A stretch of 64,000 nucleotides of DNA, from assembly GCA_045656225.1 (NCBI GenBank), contig JAZOQU010000040.1:4697-68696 (forward strand), written 5' to 3'. The notes below the pieces were generated by a model. That model did no database searches, was not told the origin of the DNA, and worked only from the letters and a program-made list of their open reading frames with translations. Source of the DNA: Kiritimatiellia bacterium. Lineage in GTDB: Bacteria; Verrucomicrobiota; Kiritimatiellia; RFP12; UBA1067. Positions 33,737 through 50,984 of the stretch are shown in pieces (within the stretch, counting starts at the first letter, position 1; each line of letters opens with the position of its first letter). The position numbers and the translations under genes are program-made.

Positions 33737-34855
33737 TTACAACTTAGACATGTTAGTTGTGTAAGTTCCATCGGCTTTAATCTTAAATACTCTTACTTGG
33801 CCCCAATTGAAAATCGCGGTTGCGCCGAGACGCATACCGTTATTGTCTATCGTATCGAATGAATTGGAGTGGTCGTGACCGAAGAAAGCGCCTTTCATAG
33901 TGCCTGATTTGCGCCAAGCCTCATAAAGAGTAATCCCATCTACAGTATGCTCCTTATTTTCGTATATTGACCATTGCGGAGGGCAAGGGCTCTCACGAAC
34001 TTGGCCAGCGATAAGCTTAGAGGCGACGGGCTTAATATTGAAAAGCTTTCTAGGGTTCTTCTTATCTATTCTACCTTTAATTTTAACCTTGCCGACCTCT
34101 TCAGTAGTCTCGAATACACCGTTCGTAATGATATCGGGTACAATTATGTGCTGAATCCAAAGATGAGGAACTTTATCGGCTGAATCACGCATATACCATG
34201 CGATTTGATCGCTATGAGGGTTATCCCAACCGCTACTTGGAATGGGCGAGCCATCTTCTCTAAACCTAACGTATGATCCAGAATCAGCTAAGTATACCTT
34301 AAAGGATGGTTTTTTAGTGTCTTTAGAATAAATATCTATAACGCCTGTACCAACGCCAGTTAACTCAGGTATATCATAATCAATAAATAAATCGCCTAAT
34401 TGCTTTTTAAACCAATCATATTGAGCCTGGCGCGAGAAATACACCGAATCATCAGGTGCGTGTTCAGAGTCGTGATTACCGAATGTAATAGCGAGTGACG
34501 TATTTGTGCGCTTAAGAGCCTCGACTAAAGGCGTCATAAGTATTGGGAATTTTTCAATCGTGTTTTCCCGCGTGTTTACATTATCGCCCGAGAGGACGAC
34601 GAATGACGCGTTAAGCGCTTTTATTTTCTTTTCTAACTTGTCAACAATGGCTGTGTTTGGCGGCTTGTCCTTCATTCTAAGGTGCCAGTCAGCTATCATA
34701 AAAAAGGTAATAGTTCTATCATTTGCAAAATTGAATGAGGGGGATTTGCTTTTTGCGGTATCTGTTGGCGCACTATAAAGGGAATTGAGCGGGCTCAGGC
34801 CAGCCAGTGTCGTAAGAGAACAGAATCCGTTGATAAATGATTTTCTACTAATCAT
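33737..34855 (-). CDS. Secreted metallophosphoesterase
   Basis: N-terminal hydrophobic leader; motifs IADWH, GDNVNTRE, GNHDSEH, GHDHSN. Confidence 0.7.
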   Translation of the reverse strand: MISRKSFINGFCSLTTLAGLSPLNSLYSAPTDTAKSKSPSFNFANDRTITFFMIADWHLRMKDKPPNTAIVDKLEKKIKALNASFVVLSGDNVNTRENTIEKFPILMTPLVEALKRTNTSLAITFGNHDSEHAPDDSVYFSRQAQYDWFKKQLGDLFIDYDIPELTGVGTGVIDIYSKDTKKPSFKVYLADSGSYVRFREDGSPIPSSGWDNPHSDQIAWYMRDSADKVPHLWIQHIIVPDIITNGVFETTEEVGKVKIKGRIDKKNPRKLFNIKPVASKLIAGQVRESPCPPQWSIYENKEHTVDGITLYEAWRKSGTMKGAFFGHDHSNSFDTIDNNGMRLGATAIFNWGQVRVFKIKADGTYTTNMSKL

Positions 34856-35221
34856 AGTAATTAAATATTATGAAGTTAACTTACTCACAGTATATCAAAG
34901 TCACTGAAAGCGTACAACGCACCTTTTACGGCAACAAACTGCGTCGCGAGAAAGAGAAGAACTTCAATTTGACGGTGGGTTTTAATTATGGTATTATTGA
35001 GGTGTTGTCATTAGCCTAAAAGGGTCACATTAGGAGAATGAAGCGAAGGTTCACTTGCAATATTATTATTGTTTCTACGCGTATTTAGCGCGTAGCGTGT
35101 TACCTTTGTTTTGTTGGTTTTTAGTGCGTACCTTTTTCGCGGTGAATTTAACAGGCACTCGCTGTTTAGGGGATAAAATCTTAAGCGGCAGGTGCAAAAC
35201 CAAAAAAAAAAGGGCACAATA

Positions 35222-38083
35222 ATGAAACAAATACTAAGTAAGTGCTTCAGTAAGATGAAGTGTGTTGCGCTTACATTGTTCGCCGCGCTTTGCGTCGGAT
35301 CAGTGTGGGGTGCGTCTGCAGAGTTAGAGAATAGTAATGCACGGATAGAGGACGGTGACTTTAAGTTCACAACCCTAATTACGCAAATAGGTTCAACATC
35401 AACCAGATATGGATATTTAGATGCTGAAGTATTGAATGCTAATGATGAAGTTGTAATTTCTTCTACTAGGCTTATTGATGGGCAAAAGTTTGCGAACAAG
35501 GATACCAGTACTTATCAACAATCGTTTGATTGTGTTTTCGAGGGTGTTGGAACTACGACTGAATGTTTTACGATTCAAGAATTTTATGATAAGGGCTATT
35601 GTGTAAAATTAACCTTCAATGGTACAAAGAAGACGTCGTACACAGAACTTGATTGCCCAGGCCATGGAGAGATTGTTATTTGGAGAGATACAGGGGTTAA
35701 TTCAAGCGAGATGAAGTTCGCTGAATCTTCATCGATTGTTGATGGTAAGCTTGTTGCCCCGTCGTATCCTTATGTATCGGGCGAGTATGATACGACAAAG
35801 GGTATTACTAAAATTGTAATAAGATATTCAATTAATGATAAATTATTTGCAAATGCAGTCACTAAAGAAGCGACTCTTAATAATAGTGATGGTACTTACA
35901 GGTGCGAGATACCCGCGGAATATGCGAGCGACATCATAAATTGGGAAGTTATCGTATATGCTGGAGCAGAGAGTGTTGTATATTATCGTGATCCAGGTAC
36001 TGCTTTGCAGAAACAGTCCGCAGTAATGCAAGAGGATAATCTAGAATTTACATGGTTAGGAACAGTTGATAATAAGTGGGATAGCCTTGGTAATTGGAGT
36101 TGGACTGGGCGCAGTGGATGCGGATATCCAGGTAAAAAAGCTTATTCGTATTATGTAACGAAAGCTAAGTTTACTAAAAATGCTGAGGTTGATTTAAACA
36201 GCGGTGCATATTATCTTTGGGATAATAACCGTGGTTTTGAGATGACAGAGGGTATTACGGTTAAGCTTAAAAATGGTACGCTCGGCTTTCAGCCTCATAA
36301 TGATGGTAGTAGGGCTACGTTGAATTTTGGTAAGGCCAATTCTACTCTTATTTTAAATAACGTGACTATGCCATATATGCCTAGTAAAGCTGATACTTGG
36401 TATTCTTTAAAGCCAGTTGATAGCTCTACTGTTGTTGTAGAAGGGACTAAGAATTACTACTGGAGATTTAACCCCGGCAATATAAATACGAAATTTAAGG
36501 TAATGGACGGAACGGTGCAGTCGGGCTATACCGCAGCAACTCCTGGTTCTGGCTCGCAGCTTGAAATTGAAAACGGAGTCTACATTGTAAAGGCTGATGC
36601 TGAGTCTGGGCTTGCTGCGACAACAACCTTCCGTGATGGACCAGATAGACAGGCTCGCTTATGGTTGCGTAATTCGAGCTCGGGGAGTACGTATTATAAA
36701 TTTAAGCTTTATGGAAAATATAACATAAAGATACCTGCAAGTCCTTATACTAGTGCGTATATTGCTTGCTCTTATATAAGTGCGGTTGACAATAATGCTC
36801 AGTTTGTTCTTGATGTAACTGATTACAAGGGCGGGGAAAGGGTTTTGCTTCTTAGCCAGCCAAGTGCAGGTGACGGAACGAATACTCGTATGGAAGACTT
36901 TTTAGCAAAAAGTTCATCATTAGTAATCAAAGTTAATGGTCAAACAGTTGAAAATTCTACGCGTAATGCTCGACTTGTGTGGGATTATTCGGAAAAGAAA
37001 CTTTATTATCAGCAGGATTCGTTAAACGCCGCGAAGATTGGTAATACTGAGTACGCGACGCTTGGCGCAGCGCTTGAGGCTGCGGCAGATGGTGCAACCA
37101 TTAAGGTTCTTAACAATGTTGAGATTACTTCTTACTTGCAGATCACTAAGTCTCTTACGCTTGACTTGAACGGCAAGTCGATTACGCGTACAGATTCTAC
37201 AGACAACTCCACAGCCCTCTTTGTGAATGCTGCTGACGCGATTGTCACGATTACAGGCGATGGCACTGTCACAGCTGATCATGCTGTGTATGTCAACGCA
37301 GGTAAGGTGGTTATTGAAAATGGTACATTCAGTGCTGGTACCCATGCCGTTTACGTGATCAATAATGGTAATGCCGAGATCAAGGGCGGTACATTCTCCA
37401 GTGAAGATGGTCAGTATCATTACGTTCTCAACGAGTACGATCAGACGCGTGATGCTACATCGATTGTTGTTACGGGCGGTACATTCGTTGGCTTCAATCC
37501 TGCTAATAACGGAGCTGAAGGTGAAAATACAAACTTCTGCGCCCTTGATTATGAAGCTGTCGCAGGTGATGTTGATGGGACATGGGTGGTTCAGAAAGCG
37601 ATCTCTGAGCTTAAGCCTGGCATCCCGGTAACTAACATTTCCGCTACGACTGAAGAAGAGGCAATCAATAAGGTAGAACTTAAGGTTGAAGTTCCTGAGA
37701 ATGCTAATATCACAAAAGATGAATATGCTGAATACTTCAAGATTGTCGCTACCGAAACTTCTGAAGGTTCGGGCGTATGGGAAGTAGCGGTCGTTCTTGA
37801 TGACACAAAGGTTAAGCCTGTAATCGCTGAGACGACGGCAGATGACACCACCAAGGAAGCGTTTGTAATTGACGATGACGGTAATGTTACGCTCAATATC
37901 AGCAATAAGAAGCCTGGTCTTTACTATGGTGTTCAGGTTCTTGCAGAACTTGGCGCTGATCCTGTAGCTGTCGTTCCTGAGACAGAAGCTGGCGCTCTCG
38001 TTGTTACTGCGGATGATATTCCCGACGGTAACGCTGCGTTCTTCAAGGTCGTTGTTGACTTTAAGCCGATTGTAGCTGAGTAA
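35222..38083 (+). CDS. Paralogous secreted surface protein P1 (about 953 aa from ATG 35222)
   Basis: Family signal peptide KCVALTLFAALCVGSVWGA, conserved core YYQQDSLNAAKIGNTEYATLGAALEAAADGATIKVLNN, beta-helix-like G-rich repeats, C-terminus FFKVVVDFK shared with P2. Confidence 0.8.
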   Translation: MKQILSKCFSKMKCVALTLFAALCVGSVWGASAELENSNARIEDGDFKFTTLITQIGSTSTRYGYLDAEVLNANDEVVISSTRLIDGQKFANKDTSTYQQSFDCVFEGVGTTTECFTIQEFYDKGYCVKLTFNGTKKTSYTELDCPGHGEIVIWRDTGVNSSEMKFAESSSIVDGKLVAPSYPYVSGEYDTTKGITKIVIRYSINDKLFANAVTKEATLNNSDGTYRCEIPAEYASDIINWEVIVYAGAESVVYYRDPGTALQKQSAVMQEDNLEFTWLGTVDNKWDSLGNWSWTGRSGCGYPGKKAYSYYVTKAKFTKNAEVDLNSGAYYLWDNNRGFEMTEGITVKLKNGTLGFQPHNDGSRATLNFGKANSTLILNNVTMPYMPSKADTWYSLKPVDSSTVVVEGTKNYYWRFNPGNINTKFKVMDGTVQSGYTAATPGSGSQLEIENGVYIVKADAESGLAATTTFRDGPDRQARLWLRNSSSGSTYYKFKLYGKYNIKIPASPYTSAYIACSYISAVDNNAQFVLDVTDYKGGERVLLLSQPSAGDGTNTRMEDFLAKSSSLVIKVNGQTVENSTRNARLVWDYSEKKLYYQQDSLNAAKIGNTEYATLGAALEAAADGATIKVLNNVEITSYLQITKSLTLDLNGKSITRTDSTDNSTALFVNAADAIVTITGDGTVTADHAVYVNAGKVVIENGTFSAGTHAVYVINNGNAEIKGGTFSSEDGQYHYVLNEYDQTRDATSIVVTGGTFVGFNPANNGAEGENTNFCALDYEAVAGDVDGTWVVQKAISELKPGIPVTNISATTEEEAINKVELKVEVPENANITKDEYAEYFKIVATETSEGSGVWEVAVVLDDTKVKPVIAETTADDTTKEAFVIDDDGNVTLNISNKKPGLYYGVQVLAELGADPVAVVPETEAGALVVTADDIPDGNAAFFKVVVDFKPIVAE

Positions 38084-38112
38084 TCAGTAAAAAACTGAAA
38101 ACTAAACTAAAA

Positions 38113-38137
38113 GGCTCGGGGCAACCCGGGCCTTTTT
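38113..38137 (+). terminator. Rho-independent terminator of P1
   Basis: GGCTCGGG-gcaa-CCCGGGCC followed by TTTTT. Confidence 0.8.
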
Positions 38138-38189
38138 AGTCGTTAGTGATTAGTCGTTAGTGATTGGTGATTAGTCGATAGTCGCTAGT

Positions 38190-38534
38190 TTATATTTTAA
38201 GCTGTTTTGCGATTGTTGTATTAAATTCATCGCGCACTTCAGCTTGGGTCGCAAAATTGGACCATTGATGTACAGCGTCTTTAACTTCATCTAGAATGGC
38301 TCTCGCCTTGCGCTCGCGTATATTCGCGAAGCTCGCGGCAGCGATTATGTCTTCGTCTGTTATGCCGATTCGCTTTCCGTTTACTGACATTTGATGCTGG
38401 CTCGTCCAATCTCCTTCGGGGTTGTAGGCATAGCATTCATCATAAGCTGGAGCGAGGCTCCATTTGCCATTACGATCCATTAGGTATGCAATGTTCTTTA
38501 CGTGATCATCACAGTTCCAACATGAGTTCCCCAT
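38190..38534 (-). pseudogene. Truncated hipA (C-terminal third only)
   Basis: NCDDHVKNIAYLMDRNGKWSLAPAYDECYA aligns with the catalytic loop and C-terminus of HipA 32380-33522. The P-loop and N-terminal roughly 270 aa are missing; only 44 nt separate it from the HTH gene. Confidence 0.6.
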
Positions 38535-38578
38535 AGATAAACATTGGCTGTGTTATGCATAGCGTTTTTCTTTCGAGA

Positions 38579-38989
38579 TTATTCTATCGGTACTCCATCG
38601 CCCCAGACTCGTTTTGGAGGAGTATTATTTTTGGTACGAACGCGTTTTGGCTCAGGCTTGTTAAATTTATTCAGTTCAGCGATTTGAAGCGGCGTCAATG
38701 TTGGTGGTGGAAGCACTAAAGAGATTTTATTAAGAACATTTAGGCATCGTAGTATTGACATAAATGATTCAAGGTGAATTCCACCAGCGCCATTTTCAAG
38801 GCGTGAGAGCGCATAGCGTGAAAGACCAGCCTGTTGCGCTAATTCTTCTTGTTTCATTCGTGAGCTAATGCGAAGATAAGCTATTCGTCGGCCTATTTCT
38901 TTTAACAAAGCGATATTAGGGAGTTCATTTGTTATGTCCATAGTGTGTCGTTTTTGTGTTGTTAGACTATGATTAATAGATTTACGCAT
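38579..38989 (-). CDS. XRE-family HTH protein with Pro/Lys-rich C-terminal extension (likely start MDITNEL at 38941)
   Basis: IGRRIAYLRISSRMKQEELAQQAGLSRYALSRLENG; tail KFNKPEPKRVRTKNNTPPKRVWGDG. Confidence 0.7.
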   Translation of the reverse strand: MRKSINHSLTTQKRHTMDITNELPNIALLKEIGRRIAYLRISSRMKQEELAQQAGLSRYALSRLENGAGGIHLESFMSILRCLNVLNKISLVLPPPTLTPLQIAELNKFNKPEPKRVRTKNNTPPKRVWGDGVPIE

Positions 38990-39057
38990 TAGATATGTGA
39001 CATATTAAACCATATTTTAATGAGAGATGCAAGTGCTTCGATATTTTAAAGTAAATA

Positions 39058-39179
39058 AGAGGTTGTTGTCGACTTTAACGAGATTAAGTAATCAGTAAAA
39101 AAATGAAAGCTAAACTAATAGGCTCGGGGTAACCCGGGCCTTTTTTAGTCGAAGGGCGGTTTTGGGAGTTAGCCGCAAA
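39058..39179 (+). repeat. Orphan 3' end plus terminator of a surface-protein family member, with 33-bp tail repeat
   Basis: GGTTGTTGTCGACTTTAACGAGATTAAGTAA matches the last codons of P2 (VVVDFKEIK*). Then GGCTCGGGGTAACCCGGGCC-T6, then AGTCGAAGGGCGGTTTTGGGAGTTAGCCGCAAA, repeated at 42845-42877. Confidence 0.75.
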
Positions 39180-39431
39180 GGTATAATGTAGAGGACGCAA
39201 AGGTGGTCGTAAAGGACCTTCAGTTAATACGACTGCGGTATCTTTCAAAATACTCATATAAATGTGTGAAAGCAAAATGTCGGCAGAGTTGGCGATTTGC
39301 AATTGACTTTGAGCGGGGTTAGATGATAATGAGCCATTAGAACGTGAAGTTGAAGGAGTTTTGATTCTTCAGTGGAGAGTTTTTATTGATCGACTTTGGG
39401 CGGGTGAATTATTTTAATTGAACATTTTCAC

Positions 39432-39460
39432 TTGTAATATTTTACGGAAAAGCATATACT
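39432..39460 (+). promoter_or_regulatory. Candidate sigma70 promoter of P2 (-35 TTGTAA, 17 bp, -10 TATACT)
   Basis: Positionally homologous to the stronger P3 promoter. Confidence 0.45.
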
Positions 39461-39548
39461 TCAAATTACAAGATGAGGATTGGGTCGCTAGTTATGCATA
39501 AGAATTGCGATTTAACCGCGTTTAACGACTGCGGATGTAATTCTTATA

Positions 39549-39561
39549 CCCCCCCCCCCCC
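39549..39561 (+). repeat. Poly-C tract, 13 nt, in the P2 leader
   Basis: Counted directly; the homologous position upstream of P3 has C10. Confidence 0.95.
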
Positions 39562-39695
39562 GCAGCTCTAAGAAACTTAATACGCGCCAATTCTGGCGCG
39601 ATAATTCCACTAAAATTTCAAACGATATGTCACTATGGAGATTCTCTCTATAGTGCGCTTTCGTTTATTTAAAAACCTAAGAAAGAAGGTCACAA

Positions 39696-42605
39696 ATGAA
39701 ACAAAAATTAATAAGTAAATTAAAGCGAGTAGCGCTCGCGCTTTTCGCCGCGCTTTGCGTCGGCAGCGTGTGGGGAGCCGAAATCTACACAGGAGGCGAT
39801 CCGATCTGTACATTTGATGTTCAGACAAAGAAGCTATATTTTAAACGTGGATTTACACCGTTTGAAAAAGGAACATATTGCATTTATTGTACTTACTCAT
39901 ATAATAATCAATCGGGTGAACAAATTTCAGGGGAAGGGCGAGCGCAAATAACAGCTACCAAAACTTATTGGAATGATGATAACTATTGGCCGAGTCTTAC
40001 CAAGGAGTTTGTATTGTCAGATTTTCCTGTCGGTGGAGTTTTAACGGCGTCAGTAGCGTTTCAGAAGCAAAATGGTAGTGAATGGGTAAATTGCGAAGAA
40101 TATGGCGATAGCCCCATTGTATTAAATTATTCGTTTGATACGGGTGGCGTCCTTTCTTCGGACTGTATCTGGCAAGTAACGCCAGAGAAAAAGTTTATCA
40201 TTTCGGGTCAGACTTCTGGTGGAAATATAAAGTCGGTTAGAGTGAGATATGTCGTTGGAAATTCAGAATATGCGGAATTGTCGAATGAAGCACAGTCGGT
40301 TGATGCAGAATACGACCCAACAACAGGAGCGTACAGAGCAGAAATTCCGTTTACGGAAAACGGGATCTTTTTATCATATAGTGTTTTTGCCGTATATGGT
40401 GATGCGACTGAAAAAATATACACTGATGCTCAAAGTTCAGACAATGTTTTTAGTACACAATATAAAGAAAAAGCATCTTGCACTTATACATGGCGGGGAG
40501 AAGGAGAAGATGATATATGGACAAATTTTGCGAATTGGAATATGGAGGGATTAGGTTTTGGTTACCCTGGATTAAATTACGACAATATAACTGGCGAATA
40601 TGTTGCTGGTACAGACGGTGCAAGAAGTACTGTTCGCTTTGTTGGGAATGCGGAAATAGATCTTGAAGGGAAAGCATATGAGTTTTATGAGCAGAATGAT
40701 AGTACTTCTGCCCAAAATACGCCGTATCGCGGGCTTACTTTTGAGAAGCCCGATGAACTTGATAAAATGTTTGTTGTTCTTAAAAACGGTACAATTGGAA
40801 CTAAAGTACCTGCTGATAGATATGGGCCGCTTCTTCTTGGCGCGGCAGGTGTGGAGTTGGAATTCCGCAACGCTGAGTTTAAGATAAGAACCGCTAGTAA
40901 TTATCTTCGTCTTAACAAAGACGCTACGATTGTATTTTCCGGCGATGAAGGTCGGTCTAAGAATCAAGCGTGGTATTTCGCGCCGAAGAGCGATATGACG
41001 AATAGCCGTTTAGTATTTCGCAACTTCATTGGTTATACGTATTATAGCGCGGCTAATACATCAATTGCTTCTGGTTCAGTCGTTGAGATTACAAATTCGG
41101 TCTGGAAAGTTAGAACTGGAACGTCGGCTGATTCTTCCGCAAGTAACGGCTTTGCCGAGAGGGTGGTTTTCCGTGATGGTGATGATCGCCAAGCTCAGTT
41201 GAAGTGTGTTGCGTATTATAAGGTTGGAAATACGACTGATGATCAATGGGCTAATATCAATCTCAATAATACATACGATATTAAGATTCCTGCCGCAGGT
41301 CATGAAGACGCAAGTATTTTCGCAAAGAACTTAACTGCGGGTCCCACGGGTACTTTCGAGATTGATGTAACTGATTATGTGACGGGAGAAAGGGTGCCTG
41401 TTGTGGAATTAATGGGTACACCTGCGTATACGACACTTCCAAAGCTTGTGGCCAAAGCGAACGGTGCTGATGTTACTGATGCCCGCAACGCCAAGCTGGT
41501 GTGGGACGGCAACTTTATGTATTATCAGCAGGATTCGCAGAACGCAGCTTCGATCGGTGCTACTGAGTACGCGACGCTCGGCGAGGCGGTTGAGAAGGCG
41601 GCTGACGGCGCTGCGATTAAAGTTCTTAACAATTGCACCGCTGATACAGCTTGCGTAATCGCTAACAAGACGCTTACTATCGACTTGAACGGTAAGACGG
41701 TTAAGGCGAATGATACTGACGCGGCGACCGATGGCAATGGCGTATTCTGGGTTCAGGCTGGCGGCGTACTTACGCTTGAGGATTCGAGCGAGGATAAGAG
41801 CGGTACTGTAGACGGTAATGGCGGCAATGGCTATAAGATGGCCATTTGGGCTGATGGTGGTAAGGTTGTAATTAATGCCGGTAATTACGTCAATGATAAT
41901 GATGGTACTCATAATCAGTACGATCTTATCTACGCTAAGAACGGTGGCGAGATTGTAATTAATGGTGGTACCTTTAAGTGCGATACTCCCCGTTGGACGC
42001 TCAACAGTCACAATACGAAGCCGGGTACGTTCGTAGTTACGGGTGGTAAGTTCTATCAGTATAATCCTACTGACTTCGATACCGACGAAGCCGTTACGAC
42101 TTGGTGCGATGCTAAGTATCGTGCTGAGGCTGATGGTGATTGGTATATCATTAAGGAGGGCTACACTGTTACTGAGGAATCGGCTGCTACTGTTACCGCT
42201 GATACCGAGGCTGAAGCTTTGGCGCAGGTCGACTTTAGTGTTACTACCCCTGATGGCGTAGACGCTACCGCTTATAAGAACTACTTTAAGCTTGTTGCGA
42301 CTGAGACCGCCGAGGGTTCCAAGACTTGGACAGTTGCTCTCGCTCTTAAGGACGAGCTTAAGCCTGTAATCGCTGAGACGACCAATGATGATGGTACGGT
42401 TACTCCCGCTCTCACCTTTGAGGATGGTAAGGTTACGGTCAACATCGAGAACGAGCTCCCTGGTCTTTACTATGGCGTTCGTTATGCTACGACAGTTGAG
42501 GCGGTAGATGCCGCGGAGATTGTTCCTGGCTTTACGGTTACGCCCGCTGAAGGCGATACGGCCGGCTTCTTCAAGGTCGTTGTCGACTTTAAAGAAATTA
42601 AGTAA
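39696..42605 (+). CDS. Paralogous secreted surface protein P2 (969 aa)
   Basis: Signal peptide LKRVALALFAALCVGSVWGA. N-terminal and central regions collinear with P3; C-terminal ~150 aa collinear with P1. Confidence 0.85.
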   Translation: MKQKLISKLKRVALALFAALCVGSVWGAEIYTGGDPICTFDVQTKKLYFKRGFTPFEKGTYCIYCTYSYNNQSGEQISGEGRAQITATKTYWNDDNYWPSLTKEFVLSDFPVGGVLTASVAFQKQNGSEWVNCEEYGDSPIVLNYSFDTGGVLSSDCIWQVTPEKKFIISGQTSGGNIKSVRVRYVVGNSEYAELSNEAQSVDAEYDPTTGAYRAEIPFTENGIFLSYSVFAVYGDATEKIYTDAQSSDNVFSTQYKEKASCTYTWRGEGEDDIWTNFANWNMEGLGFGYPGLNYDNITGEYVAGTDGARSTVRFVGNAEIDLEGKAYEFYEQNDSTSAQNTPYRGLTFEKPDELDKMFVVLKNGTIGTKVPADRYGPLLLGAAGVELEFRNAEFKIRTASNYLRLNKDATIVFSGDEGRSKNQAWYFAPKSDMTNSRLVFRNFIGYTYYSAANTSIASGSVVEITNSVWKVRTGTSADSSASNGFAERVVFRDGDDRQAQLKCVAYYKVGNTTDDQWANINLNNTYDIKIPAAGHEDASIFAKNLTAGPTGTFEIDVTDYVTGERVPVVELMGTPAYTTLPKLVAKANGADVTDARNAKLVWDGNFMYYQQDSQNAASIGATEYATLGEAVEKAADGAAIKVLNNCTADTACVIANKTLTIDLNGKTVKANDTDAATDGNGVFWVQAGGVLTLEDSSEDKSGTVDGNGGNGYKMAIWADGGKVVINAGNYVNDNDGTHNQYDLIYAKNGGEIVINGGTFKCDTPRWTLNSHNTKPGTFVVTGGKFYQYNPTDFDTDEAVTTWCDAKYRAEADGDWYIIKEGYTVTEESAATVTADTEAEALAQVDFSVTTPDGVDATAYKNYFKLVATETAEGSKTWTVALALKDELKPVIAETTNDDGTVTPALTFEDGKVTVNIENELPGLYYGVRYATTVEAVDAAEIVPGFTVTPAEGDTAGFFKVVVDFKEIK

Positions 42606-42633
42606 TTACTAATTACTGAATAGTTAAACTAAA

Positions 42634-42659
42634 AGGCTCGGGATACCCCGGGCCTTTTT
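42634..42659 (+). terminator. Rho-independent terminator of P2
   Basis: GGCTCGGG-atac-CCCGGGCC followed by TTTTTT. Confidence 0.8.
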
Positions 42660-42794
42660 TGTTATTAGTGTTTTTTGTGGCTGTGGAGCATTGGGTTGGC
42701 GCCTACCTTCTTAATAATCCTAGGGTTTTGGGATTGAAATCCAAAAAAAATATAATAAAACGGGATTGAAATCCTTATTATATTTCTCATTTTA

Positions 42795-42877
42795 TAAAGT
42801 AATACTTGAAGTGATAAAAGGCTCGGGGCATCCCGAGCCTTTTTAGTCGAAGGGCGGTTATGGGAGTTAGCCGCAAA
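42795..42877 (+). repeat. Second orphan family terminator plus 33-bp tail repeat
   Basis: AAAAGGCTCGGGGCATCCCGAGCCTTTTT, then AGTCGAAGGGCGGTTATGGGAGTTAGCCGCAAA. Confidence 0.7.
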
Positions 42878-42898
42878 TTGCGATCTTTGGGTTCTTTG

Positions 42899-43036
42899 CG
42901 GTAAAAAAAGTGTGTAAAGTCACAATTATTTTCCCTTCATATTGCTTTTAGAGGTAAATCTGTAGTATAATATGTATAAACGAAGGTAAAAAAAATGTGT
43001 AAAGGCGCAATTATTTTTCCTTCATAATGTTGTTTT
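42899..43036 (+). repeat. Two ~50-bp direct repeats upstream of the AAA ATPase gene
   Basis: GGTAAAAAAAGTGTGTAAAGTCACAATTATTTTCCCTTCATATTGCTTTT (42899-42949) vs GGTAAAAAAAATGTGTAAAGGCGCAATTATTTTTCCTTCATAATGTTGTTTT (42985-43036); GTAGTATAAT lies between them. Confidence 0.8.
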
Positions 43037-43042
43037 GATGAA

Positions 43043-44353
43043 ATGGAGGTTGTTATGCAGGTTAAAAGAGATGTGTTTTTAAATAGGCTTATTGCGCGTA
43101 AAGAGAATGGGATGGTTAAGATTATAACCGGTCTTAGGCGATGCGGTAAATCATATCTTTTAAGTGTTCTTTATAAAAATTACCTTCTTTCACAAAATGT
43201 GGCTGACGATCATATAATCGAGATAGCTTTGGATGAAGCTGAAAACTATAAATATCATAATCCGTTGAAGTTAGACTCTTTTATAAAAGAAAAGATAAAG
43301 GATAATGATACATATTATGTCTTTATTGATGAGATACAATATGTAAAAAAGATAAAAGTTAAAGATGAGCAGCTTGATGAGGCCGAAGAGATAACATTTT
43401 ATTCAGTTTTAAATTCCTTAATGCGTCGGTATAATATCGACTTATATGTGACAGGGTCGAATTCAAAAATGCTTTCCAATGATATCAGGACGGAATTTCG
43501 CGGGCGAGGTGATGAAGTTCATATTACACCTTTTACATTCTCGGAGTTTATGCAAGTATATGATGGTGATGTTCGGGATGGATGGGAAGAATATTTGGTT
43601 TATGGAGGTTTACCCTTGGCTGTTATGGCTTTGGATCACGAATCTAAGAGTAGATATCTTAAAAATCTTTTTGAAGAGACATATCTTAAGGATGTTGTAG
43701 AGCGCAATAAAATTCGTAAACCAGAAAGTCTTTCTGAGGTTCTTGATGTTTTGGCTTCAAGTATCGGGTCATTGACAAATCCATTAAAGATAGAAAATAC
43801 ATTTAAAACAGTTCGACATACGATATTGAAGTCTAAAACAATTTCTTCATATATTGCTAAATTAAAAGACTCATTTTTAATAGATGAGGCGCGAAGATAT
43901 AATATAAAAGGGCGAAAATATATATCCGCGCAGACAAAATTTTATTTTTCGGATGTTGGTCTTCGCAATGCACGGTTAGGTTTTCGCCAGTTGGAAGAAA
44001 CCCATATTATGGAGAATATTATTTATAATGAACTGAAGGTTCAAGGATTTGATGTAGATGTTGGTATCGTAGAAAAGCACGAGAAGAATGAAGAAAAGCA
44101 TGGATGTAAAAGACAATTGGAAATTGATTTCGTAGCGAACCGTGGTAATAAAAGGTTTTATATTCAGTCAGCTTTATCAATTGATGACTTAGAAAAAGCT
44201 CAGCAAGAAAAAAGGTCTTTGAGTAATATAGATGATTCTTTTAGAAAGTTGATAATTGTTGGTGGGAAAAAGCCGGCATATATTGACGAAAGTGGATATG
44301 TAATTGTAGGAGTTATAAATTTTTTACTGAATTCGAACGAATATTTGATATAA
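43043..44353 (+). CDS. AAA+ ATPase of the COG1373 / DUF4143 type
   Basis: Walker A GLRRCGKSYL, Walker B YYVFIDEIQY, typical ~430-aa length. Confidence 0.75.
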   Translation: MEVVMQVKRDVFLNRLIARKENGMVKIITGLRRCGKSYLLSVLYKNYLLSQNVADDHIIEIALDEAENYKYHNPLKLDSFIKEKIKDNDTYYVFIDEIQYVKKIKVKDEQLDEAEEITFYSVLNSLMRRYNIDLYVTGSNSKMLSNDIRTEFRGRGDEVHITPFTFSEFMQVYDGDVRDGWEEYLVYGGLPLAVMALDHESKSRYLKNLFEETYLKDVVERNKIRKPESLSEVLDVLASSIGSLTNPLKIENTFKTVRHTILKSKTISSYIAKLKDSFLIDEARRYNIKGRKYISAQTKFYFSDVGLRNARLGFRQLEETHIMENIIYNELKVQGFDVDVGIVEKHEKNEEKHGCKRQLEIDFVANRGNKRFYIQSALSIDDLEKAQQEKRSLSNIDDSFRKLIIVGGKKPAYIDESGYVIVGVINFLLNSNEYLI

Positions 44354-44412
44354 GATTAATTAGCGTTTCGCTTACTTTGTGACGTGTACGATCTTACCCC
44401 CCTCGTTTCTCC

Positions 44413-44441
44413 TTGCAGAATTTTATCAAAAAGCGTATAAT
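44413..44441 (+). promoter_or_regulatory. Near-consensus sigma70 promoter of P3 (-35 TTGCAG, 17 bp, -10 TATAAT)
   Basis: Spacing counted directly; about 230 nt upstream of the P3 ATG. Confidence 0.55.
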
Positions 44442-44529
44442 AGAAATATACTGATGAAGGGGATTATGACAGATACGCTTGAGAATTGCGTTTTAACCGC
44501 GGCTGACGGCTGCGGACGTGATTCTTGTA

Positions 44530-44539
44530 CCCCCCCCCC
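44530..44539 (+). repeat. Poly-C tract, 10 nt, in the P3 leader
   Basis: Counted directly; homologous to C13 at 39549-39561. Confidence 0.95.
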
Positions 44540-44673
44540 AGTCCTCTAAGAATACAAGATAACGCTGTTTTAAGAGCGTTAATCTCATTAGATTTCAAAC
44601 CCAAGTCCATTATGGGGATATGCTCCATAGTGGGCTTTCGTTTATTCATAAATAACCTAAAAAGAGGAGTAAT

Positions 44674-47600
44674 ATGAAAGAAACAAAAAAACTCAAGTGC
44701 TTCAGTAAATTGAAGCGAGTAGCGCTTACATTGTTCGCCGCGCTTTGCGTCGGATCAGTGTGGGCGGCGAATCCAACCGTATACCTAGAGGCAAGTTGTT
44801 CTTTGTCAGCTCAAGGCGTAATATCAGTAAATGATTCATTTGCATATTTTGGAAAAACAAGTGCTCGCACCTTTACGACTAAGGTGTCATATAAAATTAA
44901 TGATGGGGAGATAGTAACTGTATCGCTTAATACGACAGACTCACTTACGCCATCATCCACAAGTTCGTCCGCAGCTATCTGGAGAGGTGGCGAATATACT
45001 ACCAATGTAGAAGGCTTTGTTCCTGGCGATGTAGTTTGGGTTAAATATGAATTGGAGTATAGTGGAGAGGTAGGAGGCAAAACGAGCCAGTCTAAGGAAT
45101 ACACTTTTGATACGAATGGTGTTGTTGAAAGTGCTGGCAGTTGGGCGTTTTCTCCGAATAGGTTTTTAGTAAAAGGTAGTGTGCCTCTTGGCAAGGGTAT
45201 TGAGTCTGTTAAAATTCGCTATGCTATGAATTCAGATTTATTTTCTAATGAAGAGGCTACAACAGATACGTTATTAGCGACAGAATCGGCTCAGGAAAAT
45301 ACTAAGAGTGTTGACGCAGAAGGAAAGTTTGTTTTTGAGATTCCTTTCGTTGCAGAGCATAGTACATTAGTTTGGAGTTTGTGGGCGGTATTTAATGATG
45401 GAACTGAGAAGTTATATGTTAATGCTGCTGAAGAGACATCGTTGTTAAAAATGGAGCGTAAGGAAGAAGCGTATGTTAAATATACGTGGAATGGCGAAGG
45501 AGGCAATAACTCTTGGGATAATCCTTTAAATTGGACTATGGAAGGCTTGGGTTGGGGCTTGCCTGGCCTTGTTGTTAATAATACTGATGGTGTGTATGTT
45601 GCTGAGACCGATGGTGCAAGAAGTACGGTTTGCTTCGCAGGTAACGCTGAGATAGATCTTGGTGGTAAAACATATGAGTTTTATGAGCAAGATGATAAGG
45701 GTATAAAATATGTTCCCTATCGTGGTTTGGAGTTTGAGAAGCCAGCTGATATGGAAAGAATGGAAGTTGTCTTAAAGAACGGAACTCTTGGAACTAAAGT
45801 TCCTGGTGATTCCAATGGTGAACTTCTCTTGGGTGCCGAAGGAGTAAGCCTGGAGTTTTCGAATGCGACTTTCGCTATTAGGGGTGCTAAACAACTTATC
45901 GTTCCTAATGCAGGAGCAACTATTGTATTCTCAGGGATTAAGAATCATTCGTGGTATTATGCCCCTAGGGCGAGTTATAGTAAGAATTCACAAGTTGTGT
46001 TCAGGGACTTTTCTGGCTTAGCGTATTACGATACTAGTTTAGGAGTAGCGGATGGTTCAGTACTCGAAATTGCGAACTCGCTTATTAAGTTTAGAGTTGG
46101 TACTAAGAATACTCACACAGCTAGTAAAGGTTTTGCTAAGCGAGTCATTTTCCGAGATGGACCAGATAGACAGGCTATTATGAGAGTTTGTTATTACGCA
46201 TCAGGCGATGACTCGTATGCTAATATTAATCTTAACAATACATACGATATTAAGATTCCTGCTGAGGGGCATGAAAATGCGAGTATTCAGGCTCGAAATT
46301 TAACAGAGAATCCGACGGCGACTTTTGAGATTGAAGTAACGGATTATCTTAAGAGTGATCGAGTTCCTCTCATTAACTTAAGCCAAACTCCCACGTATAA
46401 AACGTTGCCCACTTTGGTTGCTAAGGCTAATGGCGAGGATGTAACTCAAGTTCGTAATGCGCGTCTTTTCTGGGATGGAAAAGTTCTTTATTATCAGCAA
46501 AATAACCAGCATGTTGCTTCAATCGGCAGTGTTGAGTATGCTACGCTCGCCGATGCGTTCGCCGCGGCTGAGGCTGGCGCTACGGTTAAGCTCCTCAACG
46601 ATGCAACGCTCGCTGAAAAGATCACTGTTAAGAAGGCTGTAACGCTCGATCTTAATGGTTGCACGCTTAGCGAGACTGTCACTGACAGCTATGGTGCAAT
46701 TTATATCGGAACGGCCGGTAATCTCACCATTACCGATTCTGCTACGGGCGGTAAGATCGCGACGGATGGTGGCATCGTTATTGGTAACTATGGTACTGTT
46801 ACCGTTGCGGGCGGCACGATTGAAGCTGGCGCGGTAGCTGAGGAAGACACCTCTGTCTATAACTTCTACTATAACGGCTCGACTTACGGTAAGTTGACTG
46901 TTAATGGTGGTAAGGTTGGTCGTATTTGGAACTGCGGTAATGCGAATATCACAGCTGGCGAAGTTGTCGATATCGACAATAGCGGCGCTATGACGATCGC
47001 TGAGGCTGCGACTGTTTCTGGTACTGTTATCATTAAGAATGGTTCTGACGCGGCTGATGTTCCCGGCGCTGGTACGCTCACTGCTCCTGAGAGCCTCACG
47101 GTTCAGGTCGGTAACGATGGTGCTGAGGCATTCTACGTTGATGGTAAGTGGTTGGTCCAGGTCGTTGTCGCTACTATCGGTGAAGCTAAGTTCGCTTCGC
47201 TTGATGCTGCTATCGCGGCGGCTGGTGCTGAAGATGAAGTTGTTGTTGTAGCTGATATCGCTACGGATGCCGCATTTGAGATTACTAAGAAGGTTGCCAT
47301 CAACTTGAACGGTAAGACGATCGCGACGACTCAGGCCGATACAGAAGGTAACGGTGTATTCTGGGTTAAGGCCGGTGGTGAGTTCACGCTTAACGGTGAG
47401 GGTACGGTCAATGGTGTTGGCGGTAACGCTTATAATATCGCTATCTGGGCTGATGGCGGTAAGGTTATCATCAACGGCGGCACTTATACGAACGAGGGTG
47501 CTCAGGATGACGGTCCTGACGGCGCTCACTTCGACCTTATCTATGTTAAGAACGGCGGCGCTGTTGAAATCAACGGAGGTACGTTCAAGTGCCAGACGCC

Positions 47601-48165
47601 AGAATGGACTCTTAACAGTCATGATACCAAGAAGGGTACAATCGTTGTCAACGGCGGCCTCTTCTATCAGTTCAATCCTAGCGATTGCGCTACTGAAGGC
47701 GCTGGCACCAACTGGTGTGCAGAAGGCTTGAAGGGCGCTGAGAGCGCCGAGAATGCAGGCTATTACGAAATCGTCGTTGCTTGGACCGCGCCTATGCCTA
47801 AAAAGGACGGCGACTCTGCGATCACCGAGGAGTATACCTCTGATGTTCTCGCGGCACTTCAGGCGGCGGTAGCGACGAGCGTCGATGTTAAGGTTAATGG
47901 CACCGAATTGAAGGGTAATGAAGCTGTTAAGGCTCTTAACACTGCCGTTAAGTGCTTCGACGGTGCGCTTACTTTTGATGGTACTGCCGCCAGCGTTGAC
48001 ATCGTAATTGAGGTAATCGAGGTTAATACCGAGGATCCTGCCGCTTCTACGGTCGTCGTCAAGCGCGGCGAAACCGTTCTCAGCGTCAAGACCGGCATTA
48101 CGCCTACGGTCAAGTACATTGACCTTGGCTCTGATGCCGTCGTTTTCAAGCTTGTTTTTGAGTAA
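44674..48165 (+). CDS. Paralogous secreted surface protein P3 (1163 aa)
   Basis: Signal peptide LKRVALTLFAALCVGSVWAA; collinear with P2 through the central region; extra beta-helix-like block; divergent C-terminus. Confidence 0.85.
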   Translation: MKETKKLKCFSKLKRVALTLFAALCVGSVWAANPTVYLEASCSLSAQGVISVNDSFAYFGKTSARTFTTKVSYKINDGEIVTVSLNTTDSLTPSSTSSSAAIWRGGEYTTNVEGFVPGDVVWVKYELEYSGEVGGKTSQSKEYTFDTNGVVESAGSWAFSPNRFLVKGSVPLGKGIESVKIRYAMNSDLFSNEEATTDTLLATESAQENTKSVDAEGKFVFEIPFVAEHSTLVWSLWAVFNDGTEKLYVNAAEETSLLKMERKEEAYVKYTWNGEGGNNSWDNPLNWTMEGLGWGLPGLVVNNTDGVYVAETDGARSTVCFAGNAEIDLGGKTYEFYEQDDKGIKYVPYRGLEFEKPADMERMEVVLKNGTLGTKVPGDSNGELLLGAEGVSLEFSNATFAIRGAKQLIVPNAGATIVFSGIKNHSWYYAPRASYSKNSQVVFRDFSGLAYYDTSLGVADGSVLEIANSLIKFRVGTKNTHTASKGFAKRVIFRDGPDRQAIMRVCYYASGDDSYANINLNNTYDIKIPAEGHENASIQARNLTENPTATFEIEVTDYLKSDRVPLINLSQTPTYKTLPTLVAKANGEDVTQVRNARLFWDGKVLYYQQNNQHVASIGSVEYATLADAFAAAEAGATVKLLNDATLAEKITVKKAVTLDLNGCTLSETVTDSYGAIYIGTAGNLTITDSATGGKIATDGGIVIGNYGTVTVAGGTIEAGAVAEEDTSVYNFYYNGSTYGKLTVNGGKVGRIWNCGNANITAGEVVDIDNSGAMTIAEAATVSGTVIIKNGSDAADVPGAGTLTAPESLTVQVGNDGAEAFYVDGKWLVQVVVATIGEAKFASLDAAIAAAGAEDEVVVVADIATDAAFEITKKVAINLNGKTIATTQADTEGNGVFWVKAGGEFTLNGEGTVNGVGGNAYNIAIWADGGKVIINGGTYTNEGAQDDGPDGAHFDLIYVKNGGAVEINGGTFKCQTPEWTLNSHDTKKGTIVVNGGLFYQFNPSDCATEGAGTNWCAEGLKGAESAENAGYYEIVVAWTAPMPKKDGDSAITEEYTSDVLAALQAAVATSVDVKVNGTELKGNEAVKALNTAVKCFDGALTFDGTAASVDIVIEVIEVNTEDPAASTVVVKRGETVLSVKTGITPTVKYIDLGSDAVVFKLVFE

Positions 48166-48197
48166 GATAAAAGCTTAAAAACTGATAAAGCATTTTT

Positions 48198-48249
48198 GCT
48201 GCCCGTGAAGGAGTTTTGTGACCCCTCCTCGCACGGGCAGCATTTTTTT
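48198..48249 (+). terminator. Rho-independent terminator of P3
   Basis: GCTGCCCGTG...CACGGGCAGC stem followed by ATTTTTTT. Confidence 0.8.
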
Positions 48250-48438
48250 GTGATAGAGAGCGAAGGGGGACTCCTAACCTCTTCCGTTAATTGTTATAAA
48301 AGCGGTATTTTATAGTGGGCGCATTTCCGTTTTTCACCGTCCCTTCTTTGTAATGAAACAACTAAAACTTATTCTTTATGCACGATGGGTTGTGTATGGA
48401 TGGTGGAAATGGTATAATAACGGCATCTAAGGGATGGG

Positions 48439-48744
48439 TTGCAAATTATGTGTATGCTTGACGATATACGAGCGAGGCGCGATGAGATATACGCTGTCGC
48501 AAGAGCGCACAAAGCCGAAAAACTTTGGGTGTTCGGTTCGTGTGCACGTAAAGAGGAAACGCCTGAAAGTGATATCGATTTTCTGGTGGAATTTGTTCCC
48601 GCGACAACAATATTCGATTATGTAAAACTTAAGGACTCACTTTCGCTAATTTTGGGACGAAATGTGGATATTGTGGATTCGTTTGTGTTGGAACGGGGAG
48701 ATAGATTTTCTGAAGAAGTTGCAAAGGATAGGGTTGCTGTATGA
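48439..48744 (+). CDS. MNT-type nucleotidyltransferase antitoxin (MntA-like)
   Basis: GSCARKEETPESDIDFLV (GS...DxD motif); extended -10 TGGTATAAT at 48410-48418. Confidence 0.8.
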   Translation: MQIMCMLDDIRARRDEIYAVARAHKAEKLWVFGSCARKEETPESDIDFLVEFVPATTIFDYVKLKDSLSLILGRNVDIVDSFVLERGDRFSEEVAKDRVAV

Positions 48745-49082
48745 TGCGTGATGCTCAGAGAATCGATCATATGCTTGGATTTGTCAGACGTTGTCTGGAA
48801 ATCCTTGACGGTGTAGATGAAGAAATGTACCTATCTTCATTGGATAAACAGGAGCAGGTCGAATTAAATATGCTGCATCTTGGTGAGGCTGCCGCCCGTA
48901 TTTCAGATGAGGTTAAAGAATTGCACCCAGATTTACCATGGAATGAAATGGTAGGAATGAGAAATGTTCTGACGCATGAATATTTTCGTGTAAAACCGAT
49001 TGTATTATACGAAACCGTAAGATCGGAATTTGTGACAATGGAAAAGAAGTTTGAAGAATTACAAGGGGAGTATCCGTTGTAA
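48741..49082 (+). CDS. HepT-like HEPN (DUF86) toxin
   Basis: RNVLTHEY (Rx4H HEPN motif); ATGA overlap with the MNT gene. Confidence 0.8.
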   Translation: MMRDAQRIDHMLGFVRRCLEILDGVDEEMYLSSLDKQEQVELNMLHLGEAAARISDEVKELHPDLPWNEMVGMRNVLTHEYFRVKPIVLYETVRSEFVTMEKKFEELQGEYPL

Positions 49083-49493
49083 ATTGATTTTCACATCAAT
49101 AACTATAGAATGAAAGGAAGAAACGAGAACTGATTGAAACTTTTATATCGGTCATGGTATTGAAGATGGCCGACTTCTCCACTTGCGTAGATGTTAGCAG
49201 TTAATCGATAGTAGCCAAGGAGTGAGAAGGTGTATGGGGTGGGAAACCTAACCTATGCAACGTACGCAATCTTGCGTATTTGGCTTTGTCTGAAAACGAC
49301 CAAATCTTCAATGAATAAAGCTGGATATGTAAGATGCGCTACGTGGAGTATTCCGCGTGGCGTGTCTTTTATTCGTGTTTTATTCAGGGCGCTTGGTCGT
49401 GCCTCAGACAAGACATGGATTTACAGGCACGCCACGTTTTTTTCGTCAGCGAGGCGTGTTGAAAGTAATGACGAAAATAATTAAAGGAGTAAA

Positions 49494-50102: not shown

Positions 50103-50120
50103 TATTGAAAGGAGTAGAAA

Positions 50121-50375
50121 ATGGACAAGAAAGATTTTAAAAAGTTAATAGGGTTTACAAAACTCGGAATATCATTTGCGGCTATAGCACCTTTTGTTGG
50201 ATGGGCACTAAGTGGGTTAAATGATATGGGTATGTATTTTAAGCATGCTCCCGAAAGAGCGTTCGTTTGGGCTATGGTAGGAATGGCGATTGGTAATGTT
50301 ATTACAGTATTTTTGGAAAAGCAAGAGTCTGCAAATAAAAAAGAGGAGGAGAAAGAATCACGGAATGATAATTAA
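50121..50375 (+). CDS. Small membrane protein, unknown function
   Basis: Two hydrophobic segments, Lys/Glu-rich tail; GGAG-type RBS. Confidence 0.45.
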   Translation: MDKKDFKKLIGFTKLGISFAAIAPFVGWALSGLNDMGMYFKHAPERAFVWAMVGMAIGNVITVFLEKQESANKKEEEKESRNDN

Positions 50376-50417
50376 ATATATTTGGTTGTAATTCAATTTT
50401 ATTTTAACTTTTCACAG

Positions 50418-50940: not shown

Positions 50941-50984
50941 CTTCTCCCTTGTTAAATCCTGAATAATAGTCCATAATATATGCC

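Follow-up and report, generated by a model that had tools for sequence, protein, structure and literature searches.

Three long genes, here called P1, P2 and P3, follow one another on the plus strand of a 64-kb stretch of DNA from a Kiritimatiellia bacterium (contig JAZOQU010000040.1; this whole stretch is referred to below as the window). An earlier note on this DNA described them as mosaic paralogs with a shared signal peptide, and it read the locus as a candidate surface-variation system. That description provokes a question: are these genes a recombining, switchable family of surface proteins, or is a more conventional explanation sufficient? We lean, with modest confidence, towards the former in a modified form. 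The genes would belong to a family of exported, modular beta-helix proteins that occupies a strain-variable island on one side of the replication origin (oriC), recombines at conserved joints, and is controlled gene by gene through leaders that contain poly-C tracts. The three genes are as follows.

35222–38083, plus strand: P1, 953 amino acids (aa) from the ATG; the open reading frame (ORF) is open from 35192 (ORF list, translation, alignment)
39696–42605, plus strand: P2, 969 aa (ORF list, AlphaFold, homologs, mosaic identity profile)
44674–48165, plus strand: P3, 1163 aa, with two beta-helix cassettes and a different tail (translation, alignment, tblastn)

The ORF list and the translations bear out these coordinates. 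At 953, 969 and 1163 aa, the proteins are large; the term “giant”, which had been applied to them, overstates their size. Their paralogy is well founded: tblastn aligned P2 with P3 at 44% identity (E 1e-164), P1 with P2 at 32% (E 1e-88), and P1 with P3 at 30%, and a MAFFT alignment agrees. The signal peptide (...VAL(T/A)LFAALCVGSVW(G/A)A) is essentially invariant among the three. As claimed, its conservation extends to the DNA, where it forms a 75-nt repeat that is 91% identical between P1 and P3 and 71% identical to P2; immediately 3' of this repeat, no alignment of the paralogs is possible. Every one of the core motifs that the earlier note had listed (RDG(P/D)DRQA, Y(D/N)IKIPA, YYQQ(D/N), IGxxEYATL and LDLNGK) was found in the alignment. 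The modular pattern also held. Divergence is greatest in the N-terminal ~250 aa, where identities are 16–30% in 50-aa windows; a ~150-aa tail ending in FFKVVVDFK is common to P1 and P2, whereas P3 ends in a different tail and contains an additional cassette. Metatranscriptome contigs span the conserved C-terminal modules of the family, and family members are transcribed in vivo.

Predicted fold and distribution of the family

What kind of proteins are these? Pfam and NCBIfam yielded only sub-threshold noise for P1–P3, and a sequence-profile search of the PDB returned nothing at E values up to 1. AlphaFold2 modelling with a 30-sequence family alignment was more informative. The whole of P2 was modelled with a predicted local distance difference test score (pLDDT) of 81, and residues 256–800 with a pLDDT of 86 and a predicted template-modelling score (pTM) of 0.83. 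The predicted architecture of P2 is:

Residues 1–26: signal-peptide helix
Residues 36–255: two beta-sandwich, immunoglobulin-like (Ig-like) domains
Residues ~260–800: elongated all-beta solenoid, capped by a helix where the IGxxEYATL motif lies
Last ~150 aa: small domains of mixed alpha/beta structure

When the full P2 model was submitted to Foldseek, only generic FN3/Ig tandems were retrieved, matching the N-terminal domain pair. The core gave weak matches (best E 3.5e-3, TM 0.1–0.2), nearly all of which were right-handed beta-helix proteins; among them were PL6 lyase, CBA120 tailspikes, Ag43, pertactin and Hap. Taken as predictions, these results support the assignment of P1–P3 as Sec-type secreted beta-helix proteins. 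Behind its signal peptide, each would have a pair of hypervariable Ig-like domains, a core formed by a beta-solenoid, at least one ~200-aa cassette, and a ~150-aa C-terminal domain. On the basis of the signal peptide and of a fold typical of adhesins and glycan-active proteins, they are most likely located at the cell surface or outside the cell, where they would most likely act as adhesins or glycan binders.

The same fold invites another reading, which we consider credible though distinctly less probable: P1–P3 could be fast-evolving secreted glycan-active beta-helix enzymes or binding modules that track their substrates. Kiritimatiellae are known as polysaccharide degraders, an apiosidase-like glycosidase is encoded in the island that holds the genes, a GH35 gene lies nearby, and a PL6 alginate lyase, a fucoidan lyase and a GH87 enzyme are among the top Foldseek matches. 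However, neither a CAZy-type Pfam domain nor an identifiable catalytic motif was found in P1–P3, and variability is highest in the Ig-like N-terminal domains, not in a catalytic groove.

The distribution of the family differs by module. An exhaustive profile search confined the full architecture to a few dozen Kiritimatiellae proteins, and none of the homologs carries a functional name. All homologs and related loci come from Kiritimatiellae metagenome-assembled genomes (MAGs) or from gut metagenomes (sheep, yak, cattle); the MAGs that hold them were from sheep rectum or yak caecum. The C-terminal domain occurs in the Kiritimatiellae group only, and the tail ...FFKVVVDFKEIK is likewise restricted. 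The ~200-aa beta-helix cassette taken alone (profile positions 585–790) matched 14,943 cluster representatives and is repeated in tandem, up to 24 times, within proteins of 2–7.6 kaa. One cluster of giant proteins has Clostridia members that bear the NCBI name “right-handed parallel beta-helix repeat” proteins, and Pfam has no model for the cassette. In P2, the cassette comprises residues ~615–800 (window positions 41540–42095); related proteins are P0055–P0185.

A C-terminal domain standing by itself was also seen. At L014:3563–4021 (and at L013:4051–4500), a 152-aa ORF matches the P2 C-terminal domain at 82% identity and has neither a signal peptide nor a body. It is located at another chromosomal site, near rpsB and tsf, and adjoins a 498-aa secreted protein that shares the cap motif and has a related tail.

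Mosaicism between strains

Do the genes bear the marks of recombination? The comparison of P2 with four related proteins (P0002, P0004, P0012 and P0014) gives a sharply divided profile: identities are 12–50% over residues 50–600 and 76–100%, mostly above 90%, over residues 650–969. In P0012 and P0014, an unrelated Gly_rich_2 body stands between the family signal peptide and the P2-type C-terminal half. Another relative from a Kiritimatiellae MAG, P0026, is 90% identical to P0002 in its centre only and 82% identical to P1 in its tail only; the latter match covers the C-terminal ~100 aa of P1, the remainder of which is 14–46% identical. P3 and P0003 share 84–100% identity over 1000 aa, after which P0003 continues with extra cassettes and a P2-type tail. 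Cassette insertion or deletion and tail swaps set P3, P0003 and P0006 apart.

The DNA gives a similar picture. Between P2 and the related locus L003, identity is 95% in the leader, 39–57% in the middle, and 88–96% in the 3' half. Because third codon positions in this 3' half are 84% identical, the similarity reflects recent common ancestry beyond what constraint on the protein would impose. The joints recur at three places: after the leader and signal peptide, at the YYQQD / IGxxEYATL junction, and at the tail with its terminator. Natural family members of 600 aa terminate exactly at the YYQQD junction.

Metagenomic samples were compared as well. In four samples of one study, the N-terminal half of P3 was present at 99–100% identity; the N-terminal sequences of P1 and P2 were absent from three of these four (X18, X19 and X24). 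In X18 and X19, the divergence of P3 climbs from ~0.8% to 4.7% near position 46810. Contigs of other gut metagenomes join segments of the paralogs in other combinations. These comparisons show strong mosaicism of the family between strains, and identity changes abruptly at conserved junctions.

We attribute this diversity to ordinary homologous recombination, in which both paralogs and strains exchange sequence at a small number of conserved joints: the block formed by promoter, leader and signal peptide; the YYQQD / IGxxEYATL junction; and the C-terminal domain with its terminator. Whole modules are swapped, duplicated or lost, and the orphan 3' stubs that lie downstream of P1 and P2 are footprints of such losses.

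Two programmed routes to diversity bear comparison with this proposal. The first is antigenic variation of the pilE/pilS, vlsE or msp2 type, in which one expression site is rewritten within a clone from silent cassettes. The genes are mosaic across samples, two orphan 3' stubs (39060–39146 and 42818–42877) are candidate donors, and the 152-aa ORF of L014 provides a stand-alone C-terminal domain in another MAG. Yet the window holds no array of promoterless cassettes (tblastn detects three full genes only, and no further family fragments), and the stubs consist of the conserved end of the gene and would therefore add no diversity as donors. A promoter and a terminator accompany each of the full-length genes, and the window encodes no recombinase. 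We thus consider this route very unlikely. Silent-cassette gene conversion, for which tprK is a further precedent, was rejected as a model for the locus on the grounds that donor cassettes are missing from the window and that each gene has its own promoter.

The second route is a diversity-generating retroelement (DGR). A hypervariable region in a binding-type protein is what such an element would produce. Nevertheless, no reverse transcriptase domain was detected in any large ORF of the window, and no pair of template and variable repeats was found; all of the direct repeats run from paralog to paralog, and divergence affects whole modules and not adenines specifically. The probability that a DGR is at work here is negligible, and the genes were rejected as DGR targets. 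Pfam scans of all large ORFs of the window agree with the earlier remark that no dedicated machinery is present: they identified no recombinase, reverse transcriptase or secretion partner, and no invertase or transposase.

A strain-variable island beside oriC

The chromosomal setting of the genes was examined by comparison (blastn) with a related genome, L001. It revealed the following feature:

28565–50868, no strand: strain-variable island, ~7 kb downstream of dnaA/dnaN, with conserved flanks

The flanks are 96.7% (19604–28564) and 94.2% (50869–52990) identical to L001. Between them, the window has 22.3 kb and L001 has 12.4 kb, and the genes are not the same; the L001 island contains one family member, a PDDEXK gene, and a gene for a 1911-aa Gly_rich_2 protein. 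Since the flanks match and the interior differs, the family occupies a strain-variable island at a fixed chromosomal site. The comparison between strains that had been called for earlier thus found differing island content along with the mosaic breakpoints described above. The window also spans oriC of this ruminant-gut bacterium, as gidA, dnaA and dnaN (18.2–23.0 kb) sit where the GC skew changes sign.

The GC content of the island is 39–44%, compared to ~53% in the flanks. A separate fall in GC content, to 37%, was noted at window positions 18000–22000, around gidA/dnaA/dnaN and alongside the switch in GC skew.

Could the genes instead be left over from a prophage or other mobile element (as tailspike or depolymerase genes, for example), or belong to the cargo of a defence island, and not encode host surface proteins? 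The low GC content of the island, the presence of toxin-antitoxin modules and a DUF4143 ATPase gene as neighbours, and the phage tailspikes among the Foldseek matches would all fit. In opposition to this idea, the window contains no phage structural, integrase or tRNA genes; P1–P3 carry Sec signal peptides, unlike tailspikes; and the island is found at the same chromosomal site in related genomes. We judge this explanation highly improbable.

Conserved leaders with a variable poly-C tract

How might the expression of the individual genes be controlled? The sequences upstream of the three genes contain these features:

34856–35221, plus strand: P1-type upstream region, with a promoter-like TTGACG-N17-TATTAT at 34969–34997; 91% identity to the sequence upstream of P0006 (L001/L002)
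39432–39460, plus strand: P2 promoter-like site, TTGTAA-N17-TATACT; hexamers and spacing conserved in aligned leaders
39461–39695, plus strand: P2 structured leader, with a possible upstream ORF (uORF) at 39473–39571 (32 aa, TPPPP), a C13 tract at 39549–39561, and a terminator-like hairpin at 39631–39655 followed by a U-rich tail
44397–44441, plus strand: P3 promoter region, with TTGCAG-N17-TATAAT at 44413–44441 and a C6 tract just upstream (44397–44402)
44442–44673, plus strand: P3 structured leader, with a possible uORF at 44454–44549 (31 aa), a C10 tract at 44530–44539, and a terminator-like hairpin at 44603–44637

Homopolymers had been reported in the leaders of two of the genes; these are the C13 tract of P2 and the C10 tract of P3, and the P1 leader has an A10 tract as well. 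These three are the only C/G runs of at least 9 nt or A/T runs of at least 10 nt in the 64-kb window. The A10 tract (35202–35211) directly precedes the P1 ribosome-binding site. Because the orthologous A-run is interrupted in L001/L002, and the homopolymer is thus not conserved in the orthologous leader, the A10 tract is unlikely to act as a switch. A side observation concerns the same region: in L001, a ~600-bp insertion with long inverted terminal segments (ggaggtggccggagctcctcc ... ggaggactccgctccacctcc; L001:9075–9680) interrupts the P1-type upstream region, and the window lacks this insertion.

The poly-C leaders are conserved to a different degree. An upstream block of ~280 nt is common to P2, P3 and 13 relatives, with copies in the window and in L001 and L003–L012, and it always precedes a gene with the family signal peptide. 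Within it, a sigma-70-like pair (TTGnnn-N17-TATAnT) keeps its hexamers and its 17-nt spacing across 10 aligned leaders, the sequence of the spacer itself being variable. In the 15 leaders, the poly-C tract measures 10, 10, 10, 10, 10, 11, 11, 11, 11, 12, 12, 13, 14, 14 and 18 nt, and the columns that flank it are invariant. The two closest leaders have flanks that are 95% identical and tracts of C14 and C10. Throughout the ~225 kb examined, C/G runs of at least 9 nt are found nowhere else: all 17 are in leaders or promoters or upstream of a family gene, the exceptional one (L008:574) is found ~145 nt ahead of a family gene, the leader of which escaped the search pattern. A second homopolymer lies immediately upstream of the P3-type -35 element; the window has C6 at this site, and L001 has C12 (15161–15172).

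The leader also appears to be structured as RNA. In an RNAalifold consensus of the ~225-nt leader, 97.9% of pair cells are standard pairs, compared to 38–51% when the partners are slid. At 14 pairs of the leader, a change on one side keeps the pairing through G-U; such one-sided changes speak for a structure formed by RNA of the leader strand. The poly-C tract is placed between the leader helices. The last helix, ~35 nt ahead of the start codon, resembles a terminator and is followed by a U-rich tail. Rfam gave no match at the gathering score in the window; across 34800–50500, the sole match with E below 1 was that of the P2 terminator to STnc40, at 30 bits (cutoff 45).

The possibility that the poly-C tract is a spacer between -35 and -10 elements was rejected. 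The sole conserved hexamer pair with fixed spacing lies upstream of the tract, and the G-U-preserving changes speak for transcription of the tract region.

By sequence, then, the leaders present what is expected of a simple-sequence-repeat contingency locus: a tract that exceeds the ~8–9 nt at which slippage becomes likely and whose length is polymorphic between copies. In our proposal, each gene would be under its own promoter, and P2 and P3 would be further controlled via the conserved ~225-nt structured leader, in which the length of the hypermutable poly-C tract probably determines, gene by gene, whether expression is on or off or what level it reaches. If P1–P3 were instead the glycan-active proteins considered above, the tract would be a mutational hot spot or a structural element of the leader, e.g. 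a Rho loading site, with no role in switching. The C-run is predicted to be unpaired at any length, as a Rho-binding site would be. On the other hand, the swapping of modules behind a conserved expression block, together with the retention of a variable homopolymer of at least 10 nt, is atypical of metabolic enzymes.

Several observations weigh against the proposal of a switchable, recombining surface family. When the leader was folded with tracts of C0 to C20, no length-dependent structural switch was observed, and the tract was unpaired throughout. Contigs with C11 and C12 do occur beside C13 in the same sequencing run; they may represent paralogous leaders, other strains or assembly errors. 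The 41 runs were covered as assembled contigs, and these tend to be broken near the tract. The Logan contigs in which paralog segments are joined can be chimeric at repeats, and their joints are weaker evidence than the comparisons of full-length proteins. Pfam and NCBIfam recognised no anchor or outer-membrane secretion signal in P1–P3. Finally, the weak Foldseek matches of the core leave room for an enzymatic role, e.g. that of a polysaccharide lyase or hydrolase. The earlier reading of the locus as a recombining, phase-variable surface locus therefore stands in part: the mosaic family, the strain-variable island, the poly-C leaders and the predicted secretion are retained. No array of silent cassettes was found in the window, and no sign of programmed gene conversion within a clone.

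A possible upstream open reading frame in the leader

An invariant ATG is located exactly 76 nt before the poly-C tract in 15 of 15 leaders, and its frame reads the tract as prolines. The position at which this frame would end depends on tract length. With C10 and C13 (P3 and P2 here), the possible uORF has 31–32 aa and a TAA stop 7 nt past the tract. With C11 and C14, it would extend to 65–68 aa, cross the terminator-like hairpin, and stop ~20 nt before the main ribosome-binding site; with C12 and C18, it would run in the third frame for 61–69 aa.

This arrangement suggests, doubtfully, a new kind of phase switch, in which the leader would act as a frame-dependent attenuator with the poly-C tract read as prolines in a nearly leaderless uORF. 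We can conceive of how it might work, with no great expectation that it does: the gene would be switched on when ribosomes cross the hairpin and so either block termination or expose the ribosome-binding site, and the short frame would leave it off. It is similarly questionable whether slippage of the tract would flip such an attenuator and whether the proline run would add dependence on elongation factor P (EF-P). Third codon positions of the uORF are the least variable (entropy 0.29, compared to 0.50 and 0.55 for positions 1 and 2), and there is accordingly no sign of selection on the uORF peptide. Open frames of the observed uORF length occurred in 15–27% of dinucleotide shuffles. The uORF is a tentative suggestion drawn from the sequence.

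Comparison with known systems

Is such a locus without precedent? In layout, the closest system is the Vlp family of Mycoplasma hyorhinis (Vsa and Vsp are similar), which also has clustered paralogs, a conserved block of promoter, homopolymer and signal peptide, and divergent modular bodies. Individual vlp genes are separately switchable; separate control of P2 and P3 would be the counterpart here. There are clear differences. The Vlp poly-A tract lies between the -35 and -10 elements, whereas the P2/P3 poly-C tract lies ~80 nt inside a structured, transcribed leader; the Vlps are small repetitive lipoproteins, whereas P1–P3 are beta-helix proteins of ~1000 aa with a type I signal peptide; and the host is a mycoplasma in one case and a diderm gut commensal of the PVC superphylum in the other.

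As to the homopolymer itself, the closest precedents are the C-stretch promoters of Bordetella pertussis fim2/fim3, the poly-G tract in the 5' untranslated region of Moraxella catarrhalis uspA1, and the poly-G tracts of subfamily II tpr genes of Treponema pallidum. In each of these, a C/G tract of ~10–15 nt precedes a gene for a surface protein, as it would here, and tract length varies by strain or copy. Tract position relative to the promoter differs, and in those systems experiments have demonstrated an effect of length on transcription. The tract described here lies between RNA hairpins and inside a possible uORF, unlike those of fim2/fim3, uspA1 and tpr, a placement that we read from the sequence.

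For the putative uORF, E. coli pyrBI and Salmonella mgtP (in the mgtCBR leader) offer parallels, as both have a short leader ORF that reaches or crosses a terminator hairpin, as is proposed here. The pyrBI leader ORF runs through the terminator, and mgtP has consecutive proline codons, a possible stalling site. In contrast to both, the putative proline run here would be encoded by a hypermutable poly-C tract, and changes in its length would alter the frame of the uORF and the position of its stop.

In fold, the closest proteins are E. coli Ag43, pertactin and Hap (PDB 7koh, 2iou and 3syj), which have a right-handed parallel beta-helix; the matches are weak (E ≥ 0.017). Ag43 is also phase variable, but through Dam/OxyR and not through a simple-sequence repeat. 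P1–P3 lack the C-terminal beta-barrel translocator of these proteins and are not autotransporters. Consistent with this, Pfam and NCBIfam identified no beta-barrel of the type Va kind in them, and their C-terminal 150 aa are too short for a barrel. The marks of other export routes were likewise not found. For two-partner secretion (TpsA), the N-terminus is instead an Ig-like sandwich pair, and the window has no POTRA/TpsB gene; for type IX secretion system or PEP-CTERM cargo, NCBIfam and Pfam detected no C-terminal sorting domain at E values up to 0.1. The giant beta-helix repeat proteins of gut Clostridia share the ~200-aa cassette (IGxxEYATL...LDLNGKT...GGKVxINGGTF; E down to 1e-187). They have up to 24 copies of it and are without the N-terminal core, signal peptide, leader and C-terminal domain of the Kiritimatiellae proteins.

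A polymorphic toxin of the contact-dependent inhibition (CDI) or Rhs type was considered and rejected. The polarity is reversed, with a variable N-terminus and a conserved C-terminus, and the orphans carry the conserved tail.

Contingency loci and mosaic families of surface proteins are textbook features of pathogens. To our knowledge, neither has been described in the PVC superphylum, and a full-text literature search returned no paper on phase-variation loci in Kiritimatiellae. The type of locus is itself already known; what is new is the combination of an unannotated, lineage-specific protein family with a conserved, structured poly-C leader. If the proposal is correct, strains of an abundant lineage of the ruminant hindgut would differ mainly in switchable, recombining, exported beta-helix proteins, which would indicate selection by phages, host immunity or glycan niches. 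The results also expose a gap in annotation, as the family has none and its cassette is present in ~15,000 protein clusters without a Pfam model. The leader, for its part, is a compact, conserved and structured 5' element that can be tested directly as a regulator.

Other features of the island

The remaining features of the locus are the 3' modules, the stubs, and the genes between and beyond the paralogs:

38052–38138, plus strand: shared 3' module, comprising the last P1 codons and an intrinsic terminator (direct-repeat family D2, 3 copies)
38190–38989, minus strand: HipA C-terminal fragment (38190–38534) and HTH antitoxin-like gene (38579–38989) (Pfam)
39060–39146, plus strand: orphan 3' end of a lost family member, ...VVVDFNEIK-stop and terminator (repeat D2)
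42631–42658, plus strand: P2 intrinsic terminator (terminator scan: 12 pairs, 7 of them G-C)
~42818–42877, plus strand: second orphan terminator with its downstream module; nothing of the coding sequence is left (repeat D12)
43043–44353, plus strand: AAA_14/DUF4143 ATPase gene between P2 and P3 (Pfam)
48439–49082, plus strand: MNT/HepT nucleotidyltransferase toxin-antitoxin pair (Pfam NTP_transf_2, HepT-like)
49494–50102, plus strand: small secreted protein with a PA14 domain, whose signal peptide (MMIAALCVGSV) is similar to the family one (Pfam, comparison)

The statement that toxin-antitoxin or ATPase genes separate the paralogs agrees with the Pfam assignments (HipA fragment and HTH gene, AAA_14/DUF4143, MNT/HepT). 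In the HipA fragment, the match to HipA_C is limited to profile positions 133–213, and HTH_3 was matched too; the segment 38190–38989 is a toxin-antitoxin remnant between P1 and P2. The ATPase gene is polymorphic for presence or absence, as X25 holds both forms: one contig of this run skips 42939–44278, and the full form also occurs.

Orphan 3' ends of further family members, which had also been described, do exist, but they are mere stubs: one has the last 11 codons and a terminator, and the other a terminator and the downstream module. The stub at 39060–39146 is 74–82% identical to the 3' ends of P1 and P2, and the sequence that precedes it is non-coding. The D12 copy at 42818–42877 is 85% identical to 39127–39179.

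Two further observations concern the surroundings of the family. Just outside the variable island, positions 25056–28556 encode a conserved 1166-aa protein that Pfam does not recognise and that begins with a hydrophobic, signal-like stretch; its DNA is 96.7% conserved in L001. Inside the island are three HipA-type toxin-antitoxin loci (28855–30046, 32033–33522 and 38190–38989) in different states: in one, HipA is divided between two ORFs, of 104 aa (N-terminal part) and 296 aa (C-terminal part); another has an HTH gene and HipA as an intact pair; and the third consists of the truncated HipA remnant and HTH gene on the minus strand.

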